DNA of 63,942 nucleotides, filler included, from Collodictyon triciliatum (taxonomy: Eukaryota): assembly GCA_043381765.1 (NCBI GenBank). It is 23 parts of 23 records of this genome, joined end to end, with 100 filler letters (N's around TTAATTAATTAA, not from the genome) between each part and the next. Parts side by side here need not be neighbours in the genome. Positions count along the whole stretch, not along the records: positions 5,712 to 8,465 come from JBHJMP010008351.1; 22 more parts are not named here. The stretch is one strand, 5' to 3'. How positions within the stretch are numbered: the first letter of the stretch is position 1; every line of letters begins with the position of its first letter. Below the pieces are notes generated by a model. The model was not told the DNA's origin and searched no databases. It saw nothing but the letters and a program-made list of their open reading frames with translations. This document shows, one piece after another, positions 3,521 to 51,393 of this stretch. Made by a program: the position numbers and the translations under genes.

Positions 3521-6072
3521 AAATCAAATGAAATTAATTGGTCATGTTAATTATTTAGGAATTAGATGGAGACCTTTGAATGCCCAATATACCTTATTTG
3601 ACTATGAAGTAATGTGGCCACTATTAATGACTTTGCTGTAAAAAAAAATTAATCAGATGGCGCAAATGCTTTTATTTCCCTCATTTTTCGCAAATATGTG
3701 ATTGAAATATTATGCTTTTTATTATTATTTGTCTATTTCGTGTTCGATTATAATATCATCATGAATTTGAAAACTGAATTTCAGTGATGTATTTAGAATA
3801 ATTTTATTCAATATTTTCAATCAAAAAATTAATCTTAAAAGGAATAATTTTCTTATTGGTATCAAAAGTGTCTGGAGATTAACCTTTCATTTTTCCTGGT
3901 TTTCCTAGATACAGGTTACTTAATGTGGAGTCAGAAGTTATGAAGGAATGATGATAACATTATCATATATATAAAAACAACGAACTGAAGAGAGATAATT
4001 GTCATTCAATGTCACTATACTAGTTTATCTACAAAGAGTGATGGATGATTGCTTAAAGCGCGTCAATATTTCACTATTCTTCGTTTAGTGATATTATGAA
4101 TTATTTCAATCTCAAACTATGACATACATATAAATTATACTTAAGTTTCAATGATTTTATATAGCACTCTGAATCTTGAAGGTCATAGCAAAACGAGACA
4201 AAAAAATCAAAGAAACTGTTACATCTGCTGAAACTACTAAGGGGGTAAGAAGTATTTGGATGGAAGGCTTCTAGTTTTTCTCATGAAAAAATGAATAGGG
4301 TTTAAGGAAACAATTTCTAGAGTTTGTAGAAATGTTATGTGTGAGAAACAGTAAGTTTCAATGTTTCCATAATCCTCAAAATCTAATAGAAGAATTATTT
4401 CAATTTATTTGGTTTCATCCTAACAATTTATTGAGAGAATAAAATAGAAGAATTACTCCAATAAATTCGATGCAATAAAATTGAACGAAGCGCGGAGGGT
4501 ATGTCAGCAACAAACCATATTCTATAAATACATAAATTGCTCTACTCACAAAAATTTTGACGTTTTGTTTTTTTTTTTTTTACAAAGAAATCAACAATTC
4601 CATTATGCCAAAGGAAACCGACGAAATACCTTGCCGAGCTTGTGGTCACTTCTAACATGAAAGTACTTTATCTACTTATGCATATTCTATAGTATGATGT
4701 CCTTTTTACTCAAGCACAGCTACCTGCTCGAAAACCCCGTGACTCAGTGTGCCGCCTTAACACCACCCATACCCGACTCGACTGCAACTGTCCACTTGGA
4801 AAAAGCTCATCTTAGTCCGCACAAAATATTGCCTTGCTTCGGCTGCACTTTTTGATGGTATATGGCGAAGAACATGAAGTGTTTTATTATATTTTTTTAT
4901 AACTCTGCTTTGTCCGAGTGGGAGTGGTCTAACAAACCAAAGCCACCCTCCTCCCTTAGTATGTACAAAAAGGGAAATAGACAAAGATACGCGCGCATAC
5001 ATTATTATATACCTAATCTGGAAAATTAAGATGGTGATTGTCGAACTCATTTTTGCAACAACTTTTTTCTGGTCACAATCACTTCTATCGCTGCACCTGC
5101 TCTTGTATGCCTCCCTGAACCATGGCCATTATGCCCAGTTCTATCGCTCCGTGGATTGGTTCTATTCGAGTTCACCAATAACATTCTCCACCTACGCTGT
5201 AAGCTTGACCTATATGTGTATTTATTGACTTTTGTGGGCAGTCGCAATCAGAGTTTTAGTTGATTTCATACCGATAATGTTCTAAGCTGGATATTAGGCT
5301 CATCTTCCAGTTCTTTCACTCAAACAATCTTGTTCAAAGTATAGAAAGTGGAAAAGTTTCAGTCAGTATTACTGTATTACAGATTTACTGTTCTTTAGTA
5401 CCTCTTATACCTTTTGCACCTTTTTTTTTTACCTTTTATTCCTTTCTATACCTTTTATCCTTTTATCCTTTTATCCTTTTATCCTTTTATCCTTTTATCC
5501 TTTTATCCTTTTATCCTTTTATCCTTTTATCCTTTTATCCTTTTATCCTTTTATCCTTTTATCCTTTTATCCTTTTATCCTTTTATCCTTTTATCCTTTT
5601 ATCCTTTTATCNNNNNNNNNNNNNNNNNNNNNNNNNNNNNNNNNNNNNNNNNNNNTTAATTAATTAANNNNNNNNNNNNNNNNNNNNNNNNNNNNNNNNN
5701 NNNNNNNNNNNATAAGCACTAGGTCGAGTGCGAAGAGGACTTCTCTGCATGATTGACTCACCTCCTTCCAGACCGTATTAGGGTCTTTTCAGTAGGGGTT
5801 GTCGAAGGGATTTCTCCCTCTTGCTTGCAAAAGAAAACCTATGGCTATAAGCTTCCACTCCCTGGTGTCTCTCTCAACCAAGGTCAGGAGTTTTGGCTTC
5901 GTTACCGCAGGTCTTGCAAGTGGATTTGGTCAGCTATTAAAGAGTCTGGAACATATGAAGATTATAATATTAGTGGTATTGAAAATATTTTTCAACGTAT
6001 GTTTTTTTTGTTTGTTTGTAAGGTGCACCAATGTTCAGGTCCAACCCAGAATTTTTTGGTCTGTTCTTAACC

Positions 6073-6145
6073 TCACATCACATCACATCACATCACATCA
6101 CATCACATCACATCACATCACATCACATCACATCACATCACATCA
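6073..6145. repeat. (CACAT)n pentanucleotide microsatellite
   Basis: About 14 tandem copies visible. Confidence 0.95.
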
Positions 6146-6715
6146 CTATTGACGAAAGCAGGAGCTTTGATGAATCCAAGAAGCAACCAGAATAATATAA
6201 TAGTATGATTAGTTTATATAATAATAAGGTTAAAATACTGCAATATCTCATTCTATTCCTGTAATTAATTTATATATTATTTTCCATCGTGTAATTATTG
6301 TTTTGGATTAAAATTCAAAAATACAAGCAAGCCCTTGCGTTAGCCCAGACAGAACCCACCCTATACACCTGCCAGCAAGCATACATTTCAAAAAAGCATA
6401 CTATCCACACTTGCGGTGGTAATCAAATTGTTTGGGGCCGAAATGTTGACTTTCAGTCGCAATGGCTATACGGCCGTCCTTTCGAACTCGCCGAATCGGC
6501 TCCCAGCGTTTTCTCTCAAATCACTTGTAAAAAACTTTGTGTGTTTGTTTGCCACAATGCGCACATTTTGAGAGTATCGGCAGATGCTTAATTTTACATA
6601 AATTGGTTTTATACAGTTATCTTTTTATTTATTAAATCGACTAATTGACTGAAGTTTTATTAAAATTGAAAACTCGGTAGTTCTCTAAAGGAAAAAGCAA
6701 AACAAGGACTTTCAG

Positions 6716-8465
6716 ATGAAGAAAAGGAAACGTCTTGAGTCTGAGAACCTAAAGTCTATAAAACCAGACTATCAAAATGTGAAAACATCTCAAGTCGATT
6801 GTTAAGAATCCGGATGACTATGAAAAAATCATCAATACGGTTTTATTGTGTCATAATTTGGTTACCGACACTTATCTGTTTGCAAGATGTTACATATTGA
6901 AATCATAACAAGCCCTAACCGTGAAATATTTTTTTTTGTACGCTTTAAAGACTACCAGAAAAGTTTCACGGGATAGACCCGCATGATTAAAAAAAACCAG
7001 ATGTGAGCATCACATGATGACTTTTTATCTCCATGATTTTCGATTCCTTTTGTCCCGAGAACGCTTTCCGTTGGTTGGACTATCTCATGTATTACCGTAC
7101 TTGGCGAAGCAAATGTTAACAGCTTATCATAATAACATTAAGGTACATTTTGTAAAGAGGTTACTGTGCTTTATAAATCAAAGTTCCCAAAGATGAGAAT
7201 ATTACGGAAGCTATTAGCGAGTTAACTTAAAAAAGATCTTCAAGAATTCGAAATACCGGAACAATAAAAAGGATGGGCTACAACGCATCTGAATCGTATC
7301 ATTCCCAGCGATATTGTAAAAAGTATCGAATATGATGCCAAAGTCAATGAATCGAATAAAGGAAAAAATGATGCCAAAGTCAATTCAAATAAGCCCATTC
7401 CATGTCTGATTTACATGAATCGCATTTTTGAGGACATCGGAGCCAAACTGTTTCAACCAATCTCTATAAGAACTAATACTATAGCATGTCATATTAGTCT
7501 AGATACTGTATGTTTGATAGGTCTATTAGTATTATCTGGAAAAACATTATTACTGAAGAATATATCAGGATGCAAAGAGACACTATGGGATGAGTTCTTT
7601 GAAATGAAGAAGAGGGTCTTTCATCAAAAAGACTACAACTTTAAACACATGATACAAACAGACGGCTTGGTGGTGTTATTATTGTTTGAAAAGAAAGGTA
7701 TTTCAAATTCAAAACCCAAATTATAACAAAAAAAAACCCCAAGAATATGTTTATTTCAATTAACTTTCCAAAGACCAGTTATCTTTATTAGCGACAAAAA
7801 AAAATTGTTGTAGTGGACGCAGGCAAGTTTAATTTGGTTTACATGGTGGATGAGACAGGTAAGAAATTATGTTACACGGCACACCAAAGAAGACATGATA
7901 GCAAATCTCTTAAAAATCACAAAATACTCATGCACTAGAAAAAAAAAGTACAATTCTTCAGCGATATGCATGGCAACAGATTTACAAAGTGCTTTTTCTT
8001 TTGGTCTCAGGGCTTTTGAAGAGAATCAGCAGTTTGAGATATCAAGAGTATCTTTCATCGATTTAGAGACATAACTGGATTAATATAATTCATGCACGGT
8101 CGATTATGAACAATTTCGAGAATATGCATCTATGAAATCAAAATACCAGATGGAATTTTCCAGATTTTATGAACAAGTAACTTTTCGGAAGATGAGGTGG
8201 AGACATTATGTTAAAACAAAAAGAAGTGAAGAATTATTTATGGACCGAATCAAAAAGACATTTGGCAAGGATGTTGTAGTGGCGTATGGAGACTGGAGTA
8301 GAAAATGTCCGATGAAACATTTAACGCCAACAATCAGAAGAGGGTTACAAAAAATACTATCCAAAAGTTTTGAAACAGTTAGTGTAGATGAATTTAGAAC
8401 CTCCAAGATGTGTTGTAACTGCGAAAAGGAACTGGAATATATGAAACTGAAAGGAAATTCAAAAA
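6716..8465 (+). pseudogene. Degenerate Fanzor1 (eukaryotic TnpB-derived RNA-guided nuclease), cut at the contig end
   Basis: Motifs occur in Fanzor1 order across frameshifts: VKTS.KSIV, YLAKQMLTAYHNNIKVHF, LIYMN...KLFQPISIRTNTIACHISLDT, IQTDG, RuvC-I VVVDAGKFNLVYM (Asp 7816-7818), FRKMRWRHY, VVVAYGDWS, RuvC-II VDEFRTSK (Glu 8390-8392) and Zn-finger CCNC. Several stops and frameshifts are present. Confidence 0.88.
7332..7384 (+). mobile_element. 19-bp retroposon tail insertion with 17-bp target-site duplication (TSD)
   Basis: ATGATGCCAAAGTCAAT (7332-7348) + GAATCGAATAAAGGAAAAA (7349-7367) + ATGATGCCAAAGTCAAT (7368-7384). Confidence 0.85.
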
Positions 8466-9146
8466 NNNNNNNNNNNNNNNNNNNNNNNNNNNNNNNNNNN
8501 NNNNNNNNNTTAATTAATTAANNNNNNNNNNNNNNNNNNNNNNNNNNNNNNNNNNNNNNNNNNNNCTAACCACCGCTTACATAAAGTGGAAGAAAAGAAA
8601 AAAAAAAAAAGAAAGACGAGAAAAACTTGCGATCTGACAGCCACCTCATCCAGGCGACAGGAATCATATTTCTTTTTGATGATGGATTCAATGAGATTAC
8701 ATTCTTCATTGTGTGGTTCAGTGCAGATGAAGGATATTGGGAAACAATCGCACGTGAGTCGTTCAGCTGCTTCGTTGCCGAGCGAAGACGTCCCACCCGC
8801 CAAACTCCCTCTCGGCAGCCGGTGAAAAGACAAGCACACCCGCCAACGCAAAAACCAAAGCCGGCGCGACCCTTGCGGCCCGCACAAGATACAAAGAATT
8901 TCAGTATATCTGGATTTGAAAGACAGAGGATTCACAGAATCCAGACGTTGAATCGCCATTTGTGCAGATGTCAATATCTCAGTTTGTACATTTGCGACCC
9001 ATGAGCATTGAAAATCAGGCGCGTCCTGAAAGGTATAAATTAAATCTCTTTAATGGAATACACGATATATCAAAAGTTCTCATTCGTTTCTACAATCGCC
9101 AGGCTTGTCCGTAGCATTTGTCAGCATCTCGCTTCGTCATACCAAA

Positions 9147-11319
9147 ATGGGGAGTCTAACATTGTCGGACATCCACAAAATTGCCGATGAGTGGAAACCC
9201 GGGCATGTGCGGCCCGTAAACCGGACTTTGCTCATTATCACGGAAAAGCGTCTTTCAGTATTCCCAAATGTAATGTCAGAACTGCGAGACCTACTCAGAC
9301 TCGATTTGAATGACAACATCCTGAGTGTCATTCCTGAATGGATTTCATTGCTGTCCAAACTCGAAACATTTCAAACTTACAACAACAATATCATGACTAT
9401 GCCAAAGACAATATCGAGTCTAGTAAATCTGAAATTACTGCGACTCGATGGAAACAAGATAAAAAGAATCCCAGATGAAATATCACGTTTGACCAACCTT
9501 GTAGAATTTCACCTTTTTGACAATCAAATCACAACTTTACCTAACGGAATATCTCGACTCACAAAATTAACCTCCTTCGGCCTATGGAAGAACAAAATAT
9601 CAGTTATTCCGGACTGGATATCTTGTTTGGCAAAAATGAAAGACTTGTATTTATTTAACAATAATATCATACTAGTCCCAATTGAAATATCGGAATTGAG
9701 TACCATTACATTACTGCGACTCGATGGGAACAAGATAAGAAGAATCCCAGATGAAATATCACGTTTGACCAACCTTGTAGAATTTCACCTTTTTGACAAT
9801 CAAATCATAACTTTACCTAACGGAATATCTCGACTCACAAAATTAACCTCCTTCGGCCTATGGAAGAACAAAATATCAGTTATTCCTGATACAGTATTTT
9901 TTCTGCCCAAGCTGAAGAGCTTATCGATCAACAACAATCAAATTACATCACTTACGGAAGAAATATCGAGATTAAAAAACCTTACCGTTCTTCGCATGGA
10001 CGAGAATATGATAACTGCTCTTCCCGAGGAGGTATCTTGTTTGAGAGTATTGGTTGAACTCCATCTGTTTGACAATCAATTAACATCCATTCCAAATGGC
10101 CTGTCGCGACTGAATAATTTATTGCATTTAAACTTTGACAGAAACAAAATATCGTCTATACCAGATCGGTTGTCATGTCTATCTGTATTGAAGAGCCTGT
10201 CCGTCAGCGGTAATCTTATATCGTCGTTGCCCGATTGGATATCACGTCTGACAAACTTGACTACACTGGACGCTGATGACAACCAAATATCATCTATTCC
10301 AGACGCAGTTTTTTATCTGCCTAAATTAAAGGACCTATATATCAGTGATAATTTACTTACATCATTGTCAAACGAAATATCCCGATTAACTCTCTTGACT
10401 ACTTTAAATATCAATGGGAATCAAATAATAACCCTTCCAGCTGGACTCTTTTGTTTGAGGGAGCTAGTTGAATTCAATCTCTGTGACAATCAAATCTCCT
10501 TATTGCCCAATGATATATCGCGATTGAATAAGCTGACATATATGCTTATTGATCAAAACAAATTAGGTATACTTCCCGGTGGATTATTTTGTCTGAATAA
10601 ATTGAGATACTTTTCAGTAGGCTATAATCTTCTCACATCCTTGCCCAGTGAGATATCGCGATTGACCAACTTGACGTGCTTGCAAATCAATGGGAATCAC
10701 ATATCAGTCCTTCCAAATGGACTATCTCGTTTGCCTAAATTGAACGAATTGATACTTTTTCAAAACCAGTTGTCGATTATTCCTGGTTGGGTTTCTGCTC
10801 TATCGCATCTCTCAACCCTAAGCGTTTGGGATAACCCGGTATGCTTCAAAATAAGATATTTCAACTATAAGTATTGCTATTTCTGCATTTGGTTTATCCT
10901 TCATAATTCATTAGATGACTGAACTGCCTCCTGAAATCGTTCTATTGAGAAAAATGGAAGAGTTGACACTAGAAAATAATCAAGGAGAGGCTGGCATTAC
11001 CCGTGCACCCAAAGGAATATCCAAACTTCCCTGTTGGAAAAACAACACGAAGCCGCAGCCATTTGAAGATACTTTTTGGACGAGGACTTATGCTGAAGCT
11101 CTTAGAAGATTGACTCTCTATGAAACTGTTTGTTTTTTTCTTCTAACAGTCAACGGAATAAATGTAATGTTTTGAATCATCAACCAGAAAAATCATGATA
11201 TCGCATTAAAATTTTATCGTGAAAGGTACAGGACGTGACAAATCCTCCAGAAGCATTAAAATTAGAAGGGAAAATAACATCCGAAAAATCTCGATATTCG
11301 GAAGAAACTTCAACAATCG
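9147..11319 (+). CDS. Leucine-rich repeat protein (over 20 LRRs of 23 aa), 3' partial
   Basis: ATG at 9147. Exon 1 runs to 10838 with repeated LxxLxLxxNxIxxLPxxI. GT-AG intron 10839-10914, exon 10915-11127, and a further exon from about 11226 to the contig end. Confidence 0.92.
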
Positions 11320-24840: not shown

Positions 24841-25657
24841 ATGGGAAATACTTTGTCTGCTGAAGACGCGCTTATGGAAGAAGTCCGGAAACTCTCTTAC
24901 TATCCATTTGCTGATATTGCCACTCTGAAAAGCTCCACATCTCTGAATCTCGGTAACAGGAATCTGTCATCTGTGCCGCCTGGTGTTTTTTTGTTGACTG
25001 GTCTGAAACTATTGGATCTTGGTCGCAATCAGTTGTCATCGCTACCTGCACAAATATCGTGTTTGACTGGTCTGAAAGAATTGGATCTTGATAGCAATAA
25101 GCTGTCATCGCTACCTGCACAAATATCGTGTTTGACTGATCTCACATATCTTTCTGTTTATAACAATGAGCTGTCATCACTACCTGCACAAATATCGTGT
25201 TTGACTGATCTGAAAGAATTGAATCTTGGTAGCAATAAGCTGTCATCGCTACCTGCACAAATATCTTGTTTGACTGGTCTCACATATCTTGCTGTATGCA
25301 TAAATCCGGTATGATTTTATTCATATATTATATTTCTATTTGTGTTTAAAAGATAATGACTGACAACGATACACGCAGATGGAGGAGCTTCCAGCACAGA
25401 TCACAGCACTCACAAATCTGAAAGATCTCTGGATAAACGCTGGATGCACACAAACCATAAAGAGAGCCCCGCGTGGCATCTCAAATCTCCCCTGCTGGAA
25501 CAACACAGGACACAGAGACTACCAACACATCCGCGCATTGCAGCTCTACGACCCCGTAAGCACACATCCACCCCCAACCCCCACATACACAACACAGGAC
25601 ACAACTAACATACCCCTAGGTCGATACCGCAGCTGAAGCTAAAAGAGCAGCTGAAGC
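24841..25657 (+). CDS. Short LRR protein, paralog of the 9147 gene, 3' partial
   Basis: Starts MGNTLS. Exons 24841-25308, 25379-25555 and 25620-end. Near-identical 69-nt units encode LSSLPAQISCLT. Confidence 0.9.
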
Positions 25658-50598: not shown

Positions 50599-51393
50599 GG
50601 CCGAACGCTACAGATAGGAAGGGTTGGAAGAAACAGAAGGCTCAAGAGGCACCTGCATGGATACTCGCATTCATCGGTCTTTCAGTTCGAATACCTTAAT
50701 AAAAACAGAGGATGGAAGGAAATATAGAAGGAAAATGAAAGAGAGGGAAAGCGAGAGGGGCTCGTGGCTTGGTCTCTGCCTTTGCCGGTTTCGTGTGTAT
50801 CTACGGGGATGTGCATCTGTTGGGAAAGACGGACGCATTTGGTATGAGAACAATGCGCCTACAAATATCATCACAAACATATTTTCCAGATATAGATAAG
50901 GATGCATTTCTTGCCGTTTTTTGCCCGGATTATTTCGAATGGTTGCTCTGAATAGCCTTCGTATTCCTGAGAGCCGATGAAGCAGGTTGCTTGTCACGCA
51001 ATAAGCGCAAAGCATTCAATCGGCGTTTATCTCTGTTGCCAAAGAGATGTGTGCGGGTGACTGATATGCATGCTGCTTGAAAGTGCAGCCCATGAAGCGC
51101 AGCATGAGCACGCAGGAGAGACACATCGATTCGGTCTGCCGCATCTACATCGATCCGGGCAAAGAAAAGCTGCCCACAGTCGGTCTGTGCTGTTTTTGTT
51201 TTTGTTTTTGTTTTTGTTTTTGTTTTTGTTTTTGTTTTTGTTTTTGTTTTTGTTTTTGTTTTTGTTTTTGTTTTTGTTTTTGTTTTTGTTTTTNNNNNNN
51301 NNNNNNNNNNNNNNNNNNNNNNNNNNNNNNNNNNNNNTTAATTAATTAANNNNNNNNNNNNNNNNNNNNNNNNNNNNNNNNNNNNNNNNNNNN

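Follow-up and report, generated by a model that had tools for sequence, protein, structure and literature searches.

A probable non-functional, 3′-truncated Fanzor1 copy on an unplaced eukaryotic contig

Fanzor1 is a TnpB-derived, RNA-guided nuclease of eukaryotes and giant viruses that is borne by transposons. Fanzors employ an omega-RNA from the 3′ end and cut DNA beside a TAM (PMC10530073, PMC11423790). A total of 3655 unique Fanzor sequences have been reported (PMC10530073). In Fanzors, Gly or Pro stands in place of the canonical RuvC-II Glu and a conserved downstream Glu is used instead, a rearranged catalytic site (PMC10530073). The G500/E536 pair was described as Fanzor1-specific, and the Fanzor1 constellation was given as D-X(125,275)-[TS]-[TS]-X-X-C4-X(5,50)-RD (PMC3627910). 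The elements PGv-1, PUl-1, and PUl-4 of giant viruses and protists were classified as Tc1/mariner-type Fanzor1 elements (Bao & Jurka 2013, PMC3627910), and protist genomes have been known since 2013 to contain decayed copies of Fanzor1 (PMC3627910). Fanzor families A–C, also of the Tc1/mariner type, were reported in an endogenous giant virus of Chlamydomonas, and Fanzor fragments in host genomes were reported to be akin to the Fanzors of the hosts' endogenous giant viruses (bioRxiv 10.1101/2024.09.03.611062). The Tc1/mariner and Fanzor1 architecture found in the giant-virus relatives of the present locus is already published.

The window, the whole stretch of DNA analyzed here (positions 1–63942; 63,942 nt), consisted of 23 contigs of approximately 2.75–2.85 kb each, in roughly descending order of size. 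Artificial linkers (N44 + TTAATTAATTAA + N44) separated the contigs and repeated approximately every 2.85 kb through the window; genes adjacent across a linker are therefore not genomic neighbors. One such linker directly followed position 8465, which shows that the contig break noted there is real. The G+C content of the genome was approximately 35%. The other contigs carried many microsatellites and the eukaryote-type domains TMEM132-Ig, LRR, and IPT/TIG, and these domains indicate that the host is a eukaryote, plausibly a protist as the initial annotation had it. On the complementary strand, a 949-codon frame (51342–54191; 914 AA of real sequence, 51396–54137) was open through its entire contig and contained Ig domains of the TMEM132 type (PF16070, E 1.3e-12); it represents a stretch without introns from a large gene that resembles those for surface proteins. 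Long leucine-rich-repeat ORFs occurred on the forward strand of two separate contigs at 9054–10922 and 24748–25314 (LRR_8, E 1.3e-58 and 6.9e-24, respectively). An imperfect hexanucleotide-type repeat of approximately 2 kb (59929–61900), with several frames open and SQ/SL/NL runs, ran into an IPT/TIG-domain ORF (PF01833, E 3.5e-17). The whole window gave 0 Rfam matches at the gathering threshold, the Fanzor1 contig gave a single chance-level snoRNA match (E 0.55) when Rfam was searched at E ≤ 1, and the tRNA search found none.

An exhaustive phmmer search with the open piece at 8084–8464 (127 AA) against 1.84 billion representative proteins retrieved 1813 proteins at E ≤ 1e-3, 596 of them at E ≤ 1e-10. 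The best match was P0001 (57% identity), and the best full-length match was P0003 (634 AA, 50%). Full-length relatives were approximately 590–690 AA long and matched this piece at residues of approximately 430–560. A word-index protein search with the pieces 7268–7726 and 8084–8464 returned no relatives, whereas the exhaustive search did find them. A family profile of 608 positions was derived from an alignment of 30 full-length relatives, and five pieces of the window matched it with E-values of 8.1e-12 (profile positions 19–58), 2.2e-19 (92–156), 2.5e-38 (193–330), 3.6e-17 (359–403), and 1.7e-54 (422–546). All five were collinear, and collinear matches of this strength are far beyond chance. 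The pieces spanned profile positions 19–546, the N-terminal REC/WED half included. When compared with solved Fanzor1 chains, the profile matched Parasitella parasitica Fz1 (9cf0; E 2.6e-100), Spizellomyces punctatus Fz1 (8gkh; E 3.2e-90, profile positions 7–598 of 608), and Guillardia theta Fz1 (9cer; E 7.4e-71), while the only structure matches besides Fanzor1 were two LaTranC chains at approximately 1e-3. A window piece by itself matched 9cf0 with an E-value of 1.1e-12, with defrtsk..c..ce aligned, and phmmer of the piece 7268–7726 alone against the PDB gave 0 matches. In Pfam, the five pieces matched only PF07282 (E 0.038), at 14.6 bits and thus short of the curated threshold (26.3 bits), and a search of three relatives against NCBIfam returned nothing. 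By homology and catalytic signature, the gene at 6716–8465 is a Fanzor1 gene. The assignment to Fanzor1 is supported by the profile matches to the solved structures together with the Fanzor1-specific Gly/Glu pair.

The seven motifs named in the initial annotation, from NNIKVHF to CCNC, were all present on the forward strand in the order given there, and the reading frame was indeed fragmented, with stop-to-stop pieces in frames 2, 0, 0, 2, 1, and 2 (Table 1). Both visible catalytic residues, the RuvC-I Asp and the relocated Glu, were intact as claimed. The invariant columns of the 30-relative alignment were D372, G496, E530, and R580-D581 in P0003 numbering, and the window retained the first three in VDAG, GDWS, and DEF; the Gly (GDWS) and Glu (DEF) columns were invariant in the 30 relatives. 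The sequence RTSKMCCNC at 8396–8422 corresponded to [TS]-[TS]-X-X plus the first CxxC and aligned with the same block of PpFz1 (9cf0). The copy stopped at profile position 546 of 608, approximately 80 residues before the C-terminus, which places RuvC-III and the omega-RNA beyond the break, as had been suggested. Past the contig end would lie the last fifth of the gene, to which the second CxxC and RuvC-III belong in Fanzor1; the relatives carry CLVCxxC and TRDLNSA. Outside the Fanzor1 contig, 0 of 324 HSPs were found elsewhere in the window by tblastn with all fetched relatives.

Table 1. Features of the Fanzor1-bearing contig, in window coordinates
Feature	Position	Strand	Remark
Fanzor1-bearing contig, 2754 bp, unplaced	5712–8465	.	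Linkers on both sides
Open piece	6689–6805	+	Frame 2
Putative Fanzor1 pseudogene	6716–8465	+	Collinear with residues 2–554 of 634-AA P0003; cut by the contig end
Ancestral start codon ATG	6716–6718	+	MKKRKR... N-terminus against MKRKKA... of P0003
Open piece	6783–6908	+	Frame 0
Frame change 2 to 0, inside conserved VKTS-LKSIV	6786–6794	+	X2 loose-end consensus (by eye) stays in frame
Premature TAA	6906–6908	+	Alignment to P0003
Premature TGA	6984–6986	+	Alignment to P0003
Open piece	6987–7196	+	Frame 0
NNIKVHF motif	7131–7151	+	Includes family-invariant Asn (N148 of P0003)
Frame change 0 to 1	7181–7184	+	Other copies have 2 extra nt and keep the frame (consensus, by eye)
Premature TAA, Tyr in P0003	7265–7267	+	Alignment
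Open piece	7268–7726	+	Frame 2
In-frame 36-bp tandem duplication, DAKVN...DAKVN	7329–7384	+	Absent from some other copies (36-nt skips)
KLFQPISIRT motif	7445–7474	+	Seen in the sequence
TDG motif	7658–7666	+	T318, D319, G320 of P0003; invariant or nearly so
Two frame changes (~7724, ~7791) at or near poly-A, and TAA 7761–7763	7724–7806	+	Alignment
Open piece	7792–7938	+	Frame 1
VDAG, RuvC-I motif	7813–7824	+	Catalytic Asp 7816–7818 intact; aligns with invariant D372
Frame change 1 to 2 at an A9 run	7936–7948	+	Alignment
Lineage-specific coding insertion, ~33 residues	7955–8053	+	Common to relative P0001 only
Family-invariant Glu (E422 of P0003)	8066–8068	+	Kept
Two premature TAA, 8072–8074 and 8081–8083	8066–8083	+	After the invariant Glu
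Open piece	8084–8464	+	Frame 2
GDWS	8288–8299	+	Gly 8288–8290 at the canonical RuvC-II Glu position
DEFRTSK	8387–8407	+	Relocated catalytic Glu 8390–8392 intact
CCNC, first CxxC of the C4 zinc ribbon	8411–8422	+	Second pair past the contig end
Artificial linker after the Fanzor1 contig	8466–8565	.	Nothing past the linker is part of the Fanzor1 locus

A frameshift-aware alignment of the window with the intact P0003 covered residues 2–554 of that protein with 225/527 identical positions (42.7%). The path included five frame changes (near 6791, 7209, 7724, 7791, and 7936) and eight stops (TAA at 6906, 7223, 7265, 7761, 8072, and 8081; TGA at 6984 and 7194). The lesion count is path-dependent and amounts to at least five frame changes and six to eight premature stops, in keeping with the earlier description of a dead copy. 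Three of the five frame changes lay at or beside runs of 9–10 A and may reflect errors of sequencing or assembly instead of mutations; the nonsense codons within well-aligned blocks cannot come from homopolymer sequencing errors. We estimate a probability of roughly 90% that 6716–8465 represents a non-functional, 3′-truncated Fanzor1 copy on a 2.75-kb unplaced eukaryote contig, as judged from sequence comparison. Five or six of the stops were TAA (6 of the 8 on the alignment path), a skew that could hint at an odd genetic code. An intact gene under a variant code, with TAA read as an amino acid, is nevertheless extremely improbable, as such a code would rescue neither the TGA stops at 6984 and 7194 nor the frame changes, of which there were at least five. 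Moreover, two host ORFs of approximately 623 and 950 codons on other contigs contained no TAA, TAG, or TGA, the first ending in TGA, and stop-free ORFs of this length at approximately 35% G+C indicate that TAA is not a common sense codon. The variant-code reading was rejected on the basis of the TGA stops, the frameshifts, and the TAA-free host ORFs.

Further copies of the family could be observed in public sequencing runs. Contigs of four runs were aligned to the Fanzor1 contig, namely X3 and X5 (organisms A and B) and the metagenomes X1 and X2; the run kind of X3 and X5, with X5 possibly being RNA, is a guess, and contigs cannot show expression. The word share of the Fanzor1 contig in public runs was at most 0.10, and no RNA run was listed among those sharing words with it. 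Short contigs, 384 from X3 and 380 from X5, were distributed over the entire Fanzor1 contig including the 1-kb 5′ flank, with a likeness of 85–99% to it. The numbers in the likeness classes 99+, 95–99, 90–95, and < 90 were 51, 79, 152, and 102 for X3 and 31, 103, 157, and 89 for X5, and up to 25 distinct contigs covered one position. The metagenome runs contributed 19 (X1) and 75 (X2) contigs. Many window positions differed from every matched public-run contig and are private changes of the window copy. As other copies, read by eye from the loose-end consensus, were in frame at 6790 (X2) and 7182, the window frameshifts at these sites would be private 2-nt deletions. The public-run contigs also indicate that the frame change near 7209 probably comprises two events, at 7182 and at approximately 7230–7245; with two events instead of one, TGA 7194 would be out of frame. 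The public runs show a multi-copy Fanzor1 family in which other copies are less broken, the frame being kept at two sites as assessed by eye.

The breaks of the window copy could alternatively be read as short spliceosomal introns and homopolymer sequencing errors in a live Fanzor1 gene. Eukaryote Fanzor genes can have introns (PMC10530073), three of the frame changes fell at poly-A runs, and a metagenomic relative described below has two stop-filled, intron-like insertions. Two contigs of X5, a run only guessed to be RNA, also skipped 62 nt bounded by GT..AG at 7183–7244; however, excision of this segment would remove approximately 20 residues of a stretch of approximately 25–30 residues that relatives have, and the skip was rejected as an intron. 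The sequence between the open pieces was homologous coding sequence and hence not intronic, as in EYVYFN*LSKDQLSLL against YPFHYVEDLHDEQLENL, and 7724–7806, still being homologous coding sequence, is not an intron. At VKTS/LKSIV, the frame changed without spare bases for an intron, and six stops lay within well-aligned blocks. The initial annotation had considered approximately 100 bp at 7948–8056 to be an extra insertion or an intron. The insertion could be confirmed, since the window copy had 33 extra residues at 7955–8053 compared to P0003 and P0001 carried the same extra segment in a single open frame; the intron was excluded because P0001 reads the segment in frame. Among 124 relatives covering both sides, the spacing at this site was 31 residues in 64 relatives and 64 residues in P0001 only. 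The segment, shared with one of the 124 relatives, is therefore a rare lineage-specific coding insertion, and its in-frame presence in P0001 also speaks against the intron-bearing live gene, a reading that we consider very improbable.

The 5′ part of the Fanzor1 contig showed features of its own. The first approximately 230 bp (5712–5940) were matched by contigs of all four runs (X1, X2, X3, and X5). The same loose ends recurred at 5716 and 5775 in each of the runs and at 5938 in every run but X2. This segment resembles a separate repeat or conserved piece, one that is widely shared and borders on the Fanzor-family sequence. An (ACATC)n microsatellite of approximately 90 bp (6060–6152) was located in the 5′ flank of the Fanzor1 copy, and public-run contigs broke there. 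In the same flank, contigs of X3 and X5 skipped approximately 103–106 bp at 6223–6328, which suggests either an AT-rich insertion in the window copy or a deletion in the others. The 5′ flank at 6320–6600 folded no better than shuffled sequences (z −0.36).

The ten closest protein clusters examined (P0001–P0007, P0013, P0015, and P0024) were all metagenomic. A search of a viral collection with P0003 as the query identified P0003-like genes (80–88% identity to P0003) on four IMG/VR giant-virus contigs of 57–254 kb. Comparison of two of these contigs, L081 and L083, delimited a 3.3-kb element (3631–6952) with terminal inverted repeats of approximately 33 bp and TA at the flanks. The element contained a divergent DDE_3/HTH transposase of 343–346 AA (E 1.3e-13) and a Fanzor1 ORF that stopped approximately 47 bp short of the right end, and in L083 an mRNA capping enzyme gene adjoined it. 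In the last approximately 300 bp of the element (L081 6644–6952 and L083), nucleotide conservation was 0.75–0.90 compared to a mean of approximately 0.72, a weak hint of an overlapping omega-RNA from two sequences. A further metagenomic Fanzor1 relative (L059, 1144–2118) had two stop-filled insertions in conserved blocks together with frame changes. These insertions look like short spliceosomal introns and, if so, would mark L059 as a eukaryote-borne, intron-bearing copy.

A quick tree built from 45 rows placed the window copy within a starred clade of 21 rows that included giant-virus contigs. Its end branch was 1.12 compared to a median of 0.062, which fits decay. Its best identity in the tree set was 45% over 410 columns, and the placement holds to the level of the 21-row clade. 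The shared clade with ORFs on IMG/VR giant-virus contigs, the capping enzyme gene next to one of those ORFs, and the host-genome Fanzor fragments akin to those of endogenous giant viruses (bioRxiv 10.1101/2024.09.03.611062) could also suggest that the contig comes from a giant virus, either integrated or contaminating, and not from a host transposon copy. However, identity to the giant-virus ORFs reached just 45% over 410 columns, with a long branch, and the Fanzor1 contig carried no other viral gene and no transposase. The best tblastn match to a transposase had an E-value of 0.20 and lay elsewhere in the window, and terminal inverted repeats on the Fanzor1 contig were limited to short imperfect pairs, the element ends not necessarily being on the contig. 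Variants of the entire contig at 85–99% likeness, 1-kb 5′ flank included, were numerous in the public runs, which fits an old multi-copy genomic repeat. A viral origin of the contig is improbable.

As a decayed transposon copy, the locus would have the following history. The ancestor may have encoded a protein of approximately 630–670 AA with an N-terminal REC/WED half, the RuvC-I Asp, Gly at the RuvC-II site, Glu in DEFRTSK, a C4 zinc ribbon, and RuvC-III. Judging from the family, it would have resided in a DNA transposon and used an RNA from the 3′ end of the gene as its guide; bound to this omega-RNA, it would have cut DNA beside a TAM, aiding the persistence of the transposon. The copy may then have decayed neutrally through 2-nt deletions, homopolymer indels, nonsense substitutions, and the 36-bp duplication. 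The window copy belongs to a diverged repeat family with multiple copies, and this copy yields no working nuclease. A broader interpretation is possible, although doubtful, in which the contig represents a large Fanzor1 transposon family, perhaps still active, from a freshwater lineage of eukaryotes as yet unsampled. This family would be characterized by an insertion of 33 residues downstream of RuvC-I, the Tc1/mariner-Fanzor1 elements of giant viruses would be its closest intact relatives, it would have entered the host by giant-virus exchange, and intact pairs of nuclease and omega-RNA would be present in the genome. By itself, the locus matters little, being of a known kind with thousands of Fanzors catalogued. 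It is useful as a pointer to the source organism and to organisms A and B, whose multi-copy Fanzor1 family bears a rare insertion, and a better assembly could yield an intact member and its omega-RNA.

Compared with known systems, the window family showed full-length profile homology to PpFz1 (9cf0), SpuFz1 (8gkh), and GtFz1 (9cer; Xu et al. 2024, PMC11423790). It has the RuvC-I Asp, the Gly at the RuvC-II site, and the Glu in (D/N)E(F/Y)xTS followed by CxxC in common with these solved Fanzor1 proteins, whereas the window copy is broken and lacks the last approximately 80 residues. The 33-residue insertion of the window copy lies between RuvC-I and the conserved NSKT block, a different site from that of the FRI insertion of PpFz1 (profile 454/455). 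The closest full-length relatives (P0003 and the ORFs of L081–L084) share the 3.3-kb TIR/DDE_3 architecture of Tc1/mariner Fanzor1 elements, whereas the window contig showed neither a transposase remnant nor a terminal inverted repeat. CMe-1A of Cyanidioschyzon merolae, with copies approximately 80% identical to the consensus (PMC3627910), is likewise a decayed multi-copy family, and in the window family, too, single copies bear frameshifts and stops, but the window family is a different sequence family. Prokaryotic TnpB (IS200/IS605 and IS607) and Cas12f have the split RuvC and the zinc ribbon in common with the window copy, which matched PF07282 weakly (14.6 against 26.3 bits). In contrast to TnpB, the window copy has Gly in place of the canonical RuvC-II Glu, and its long N-terminal half is homologous to Fanzor1 only.
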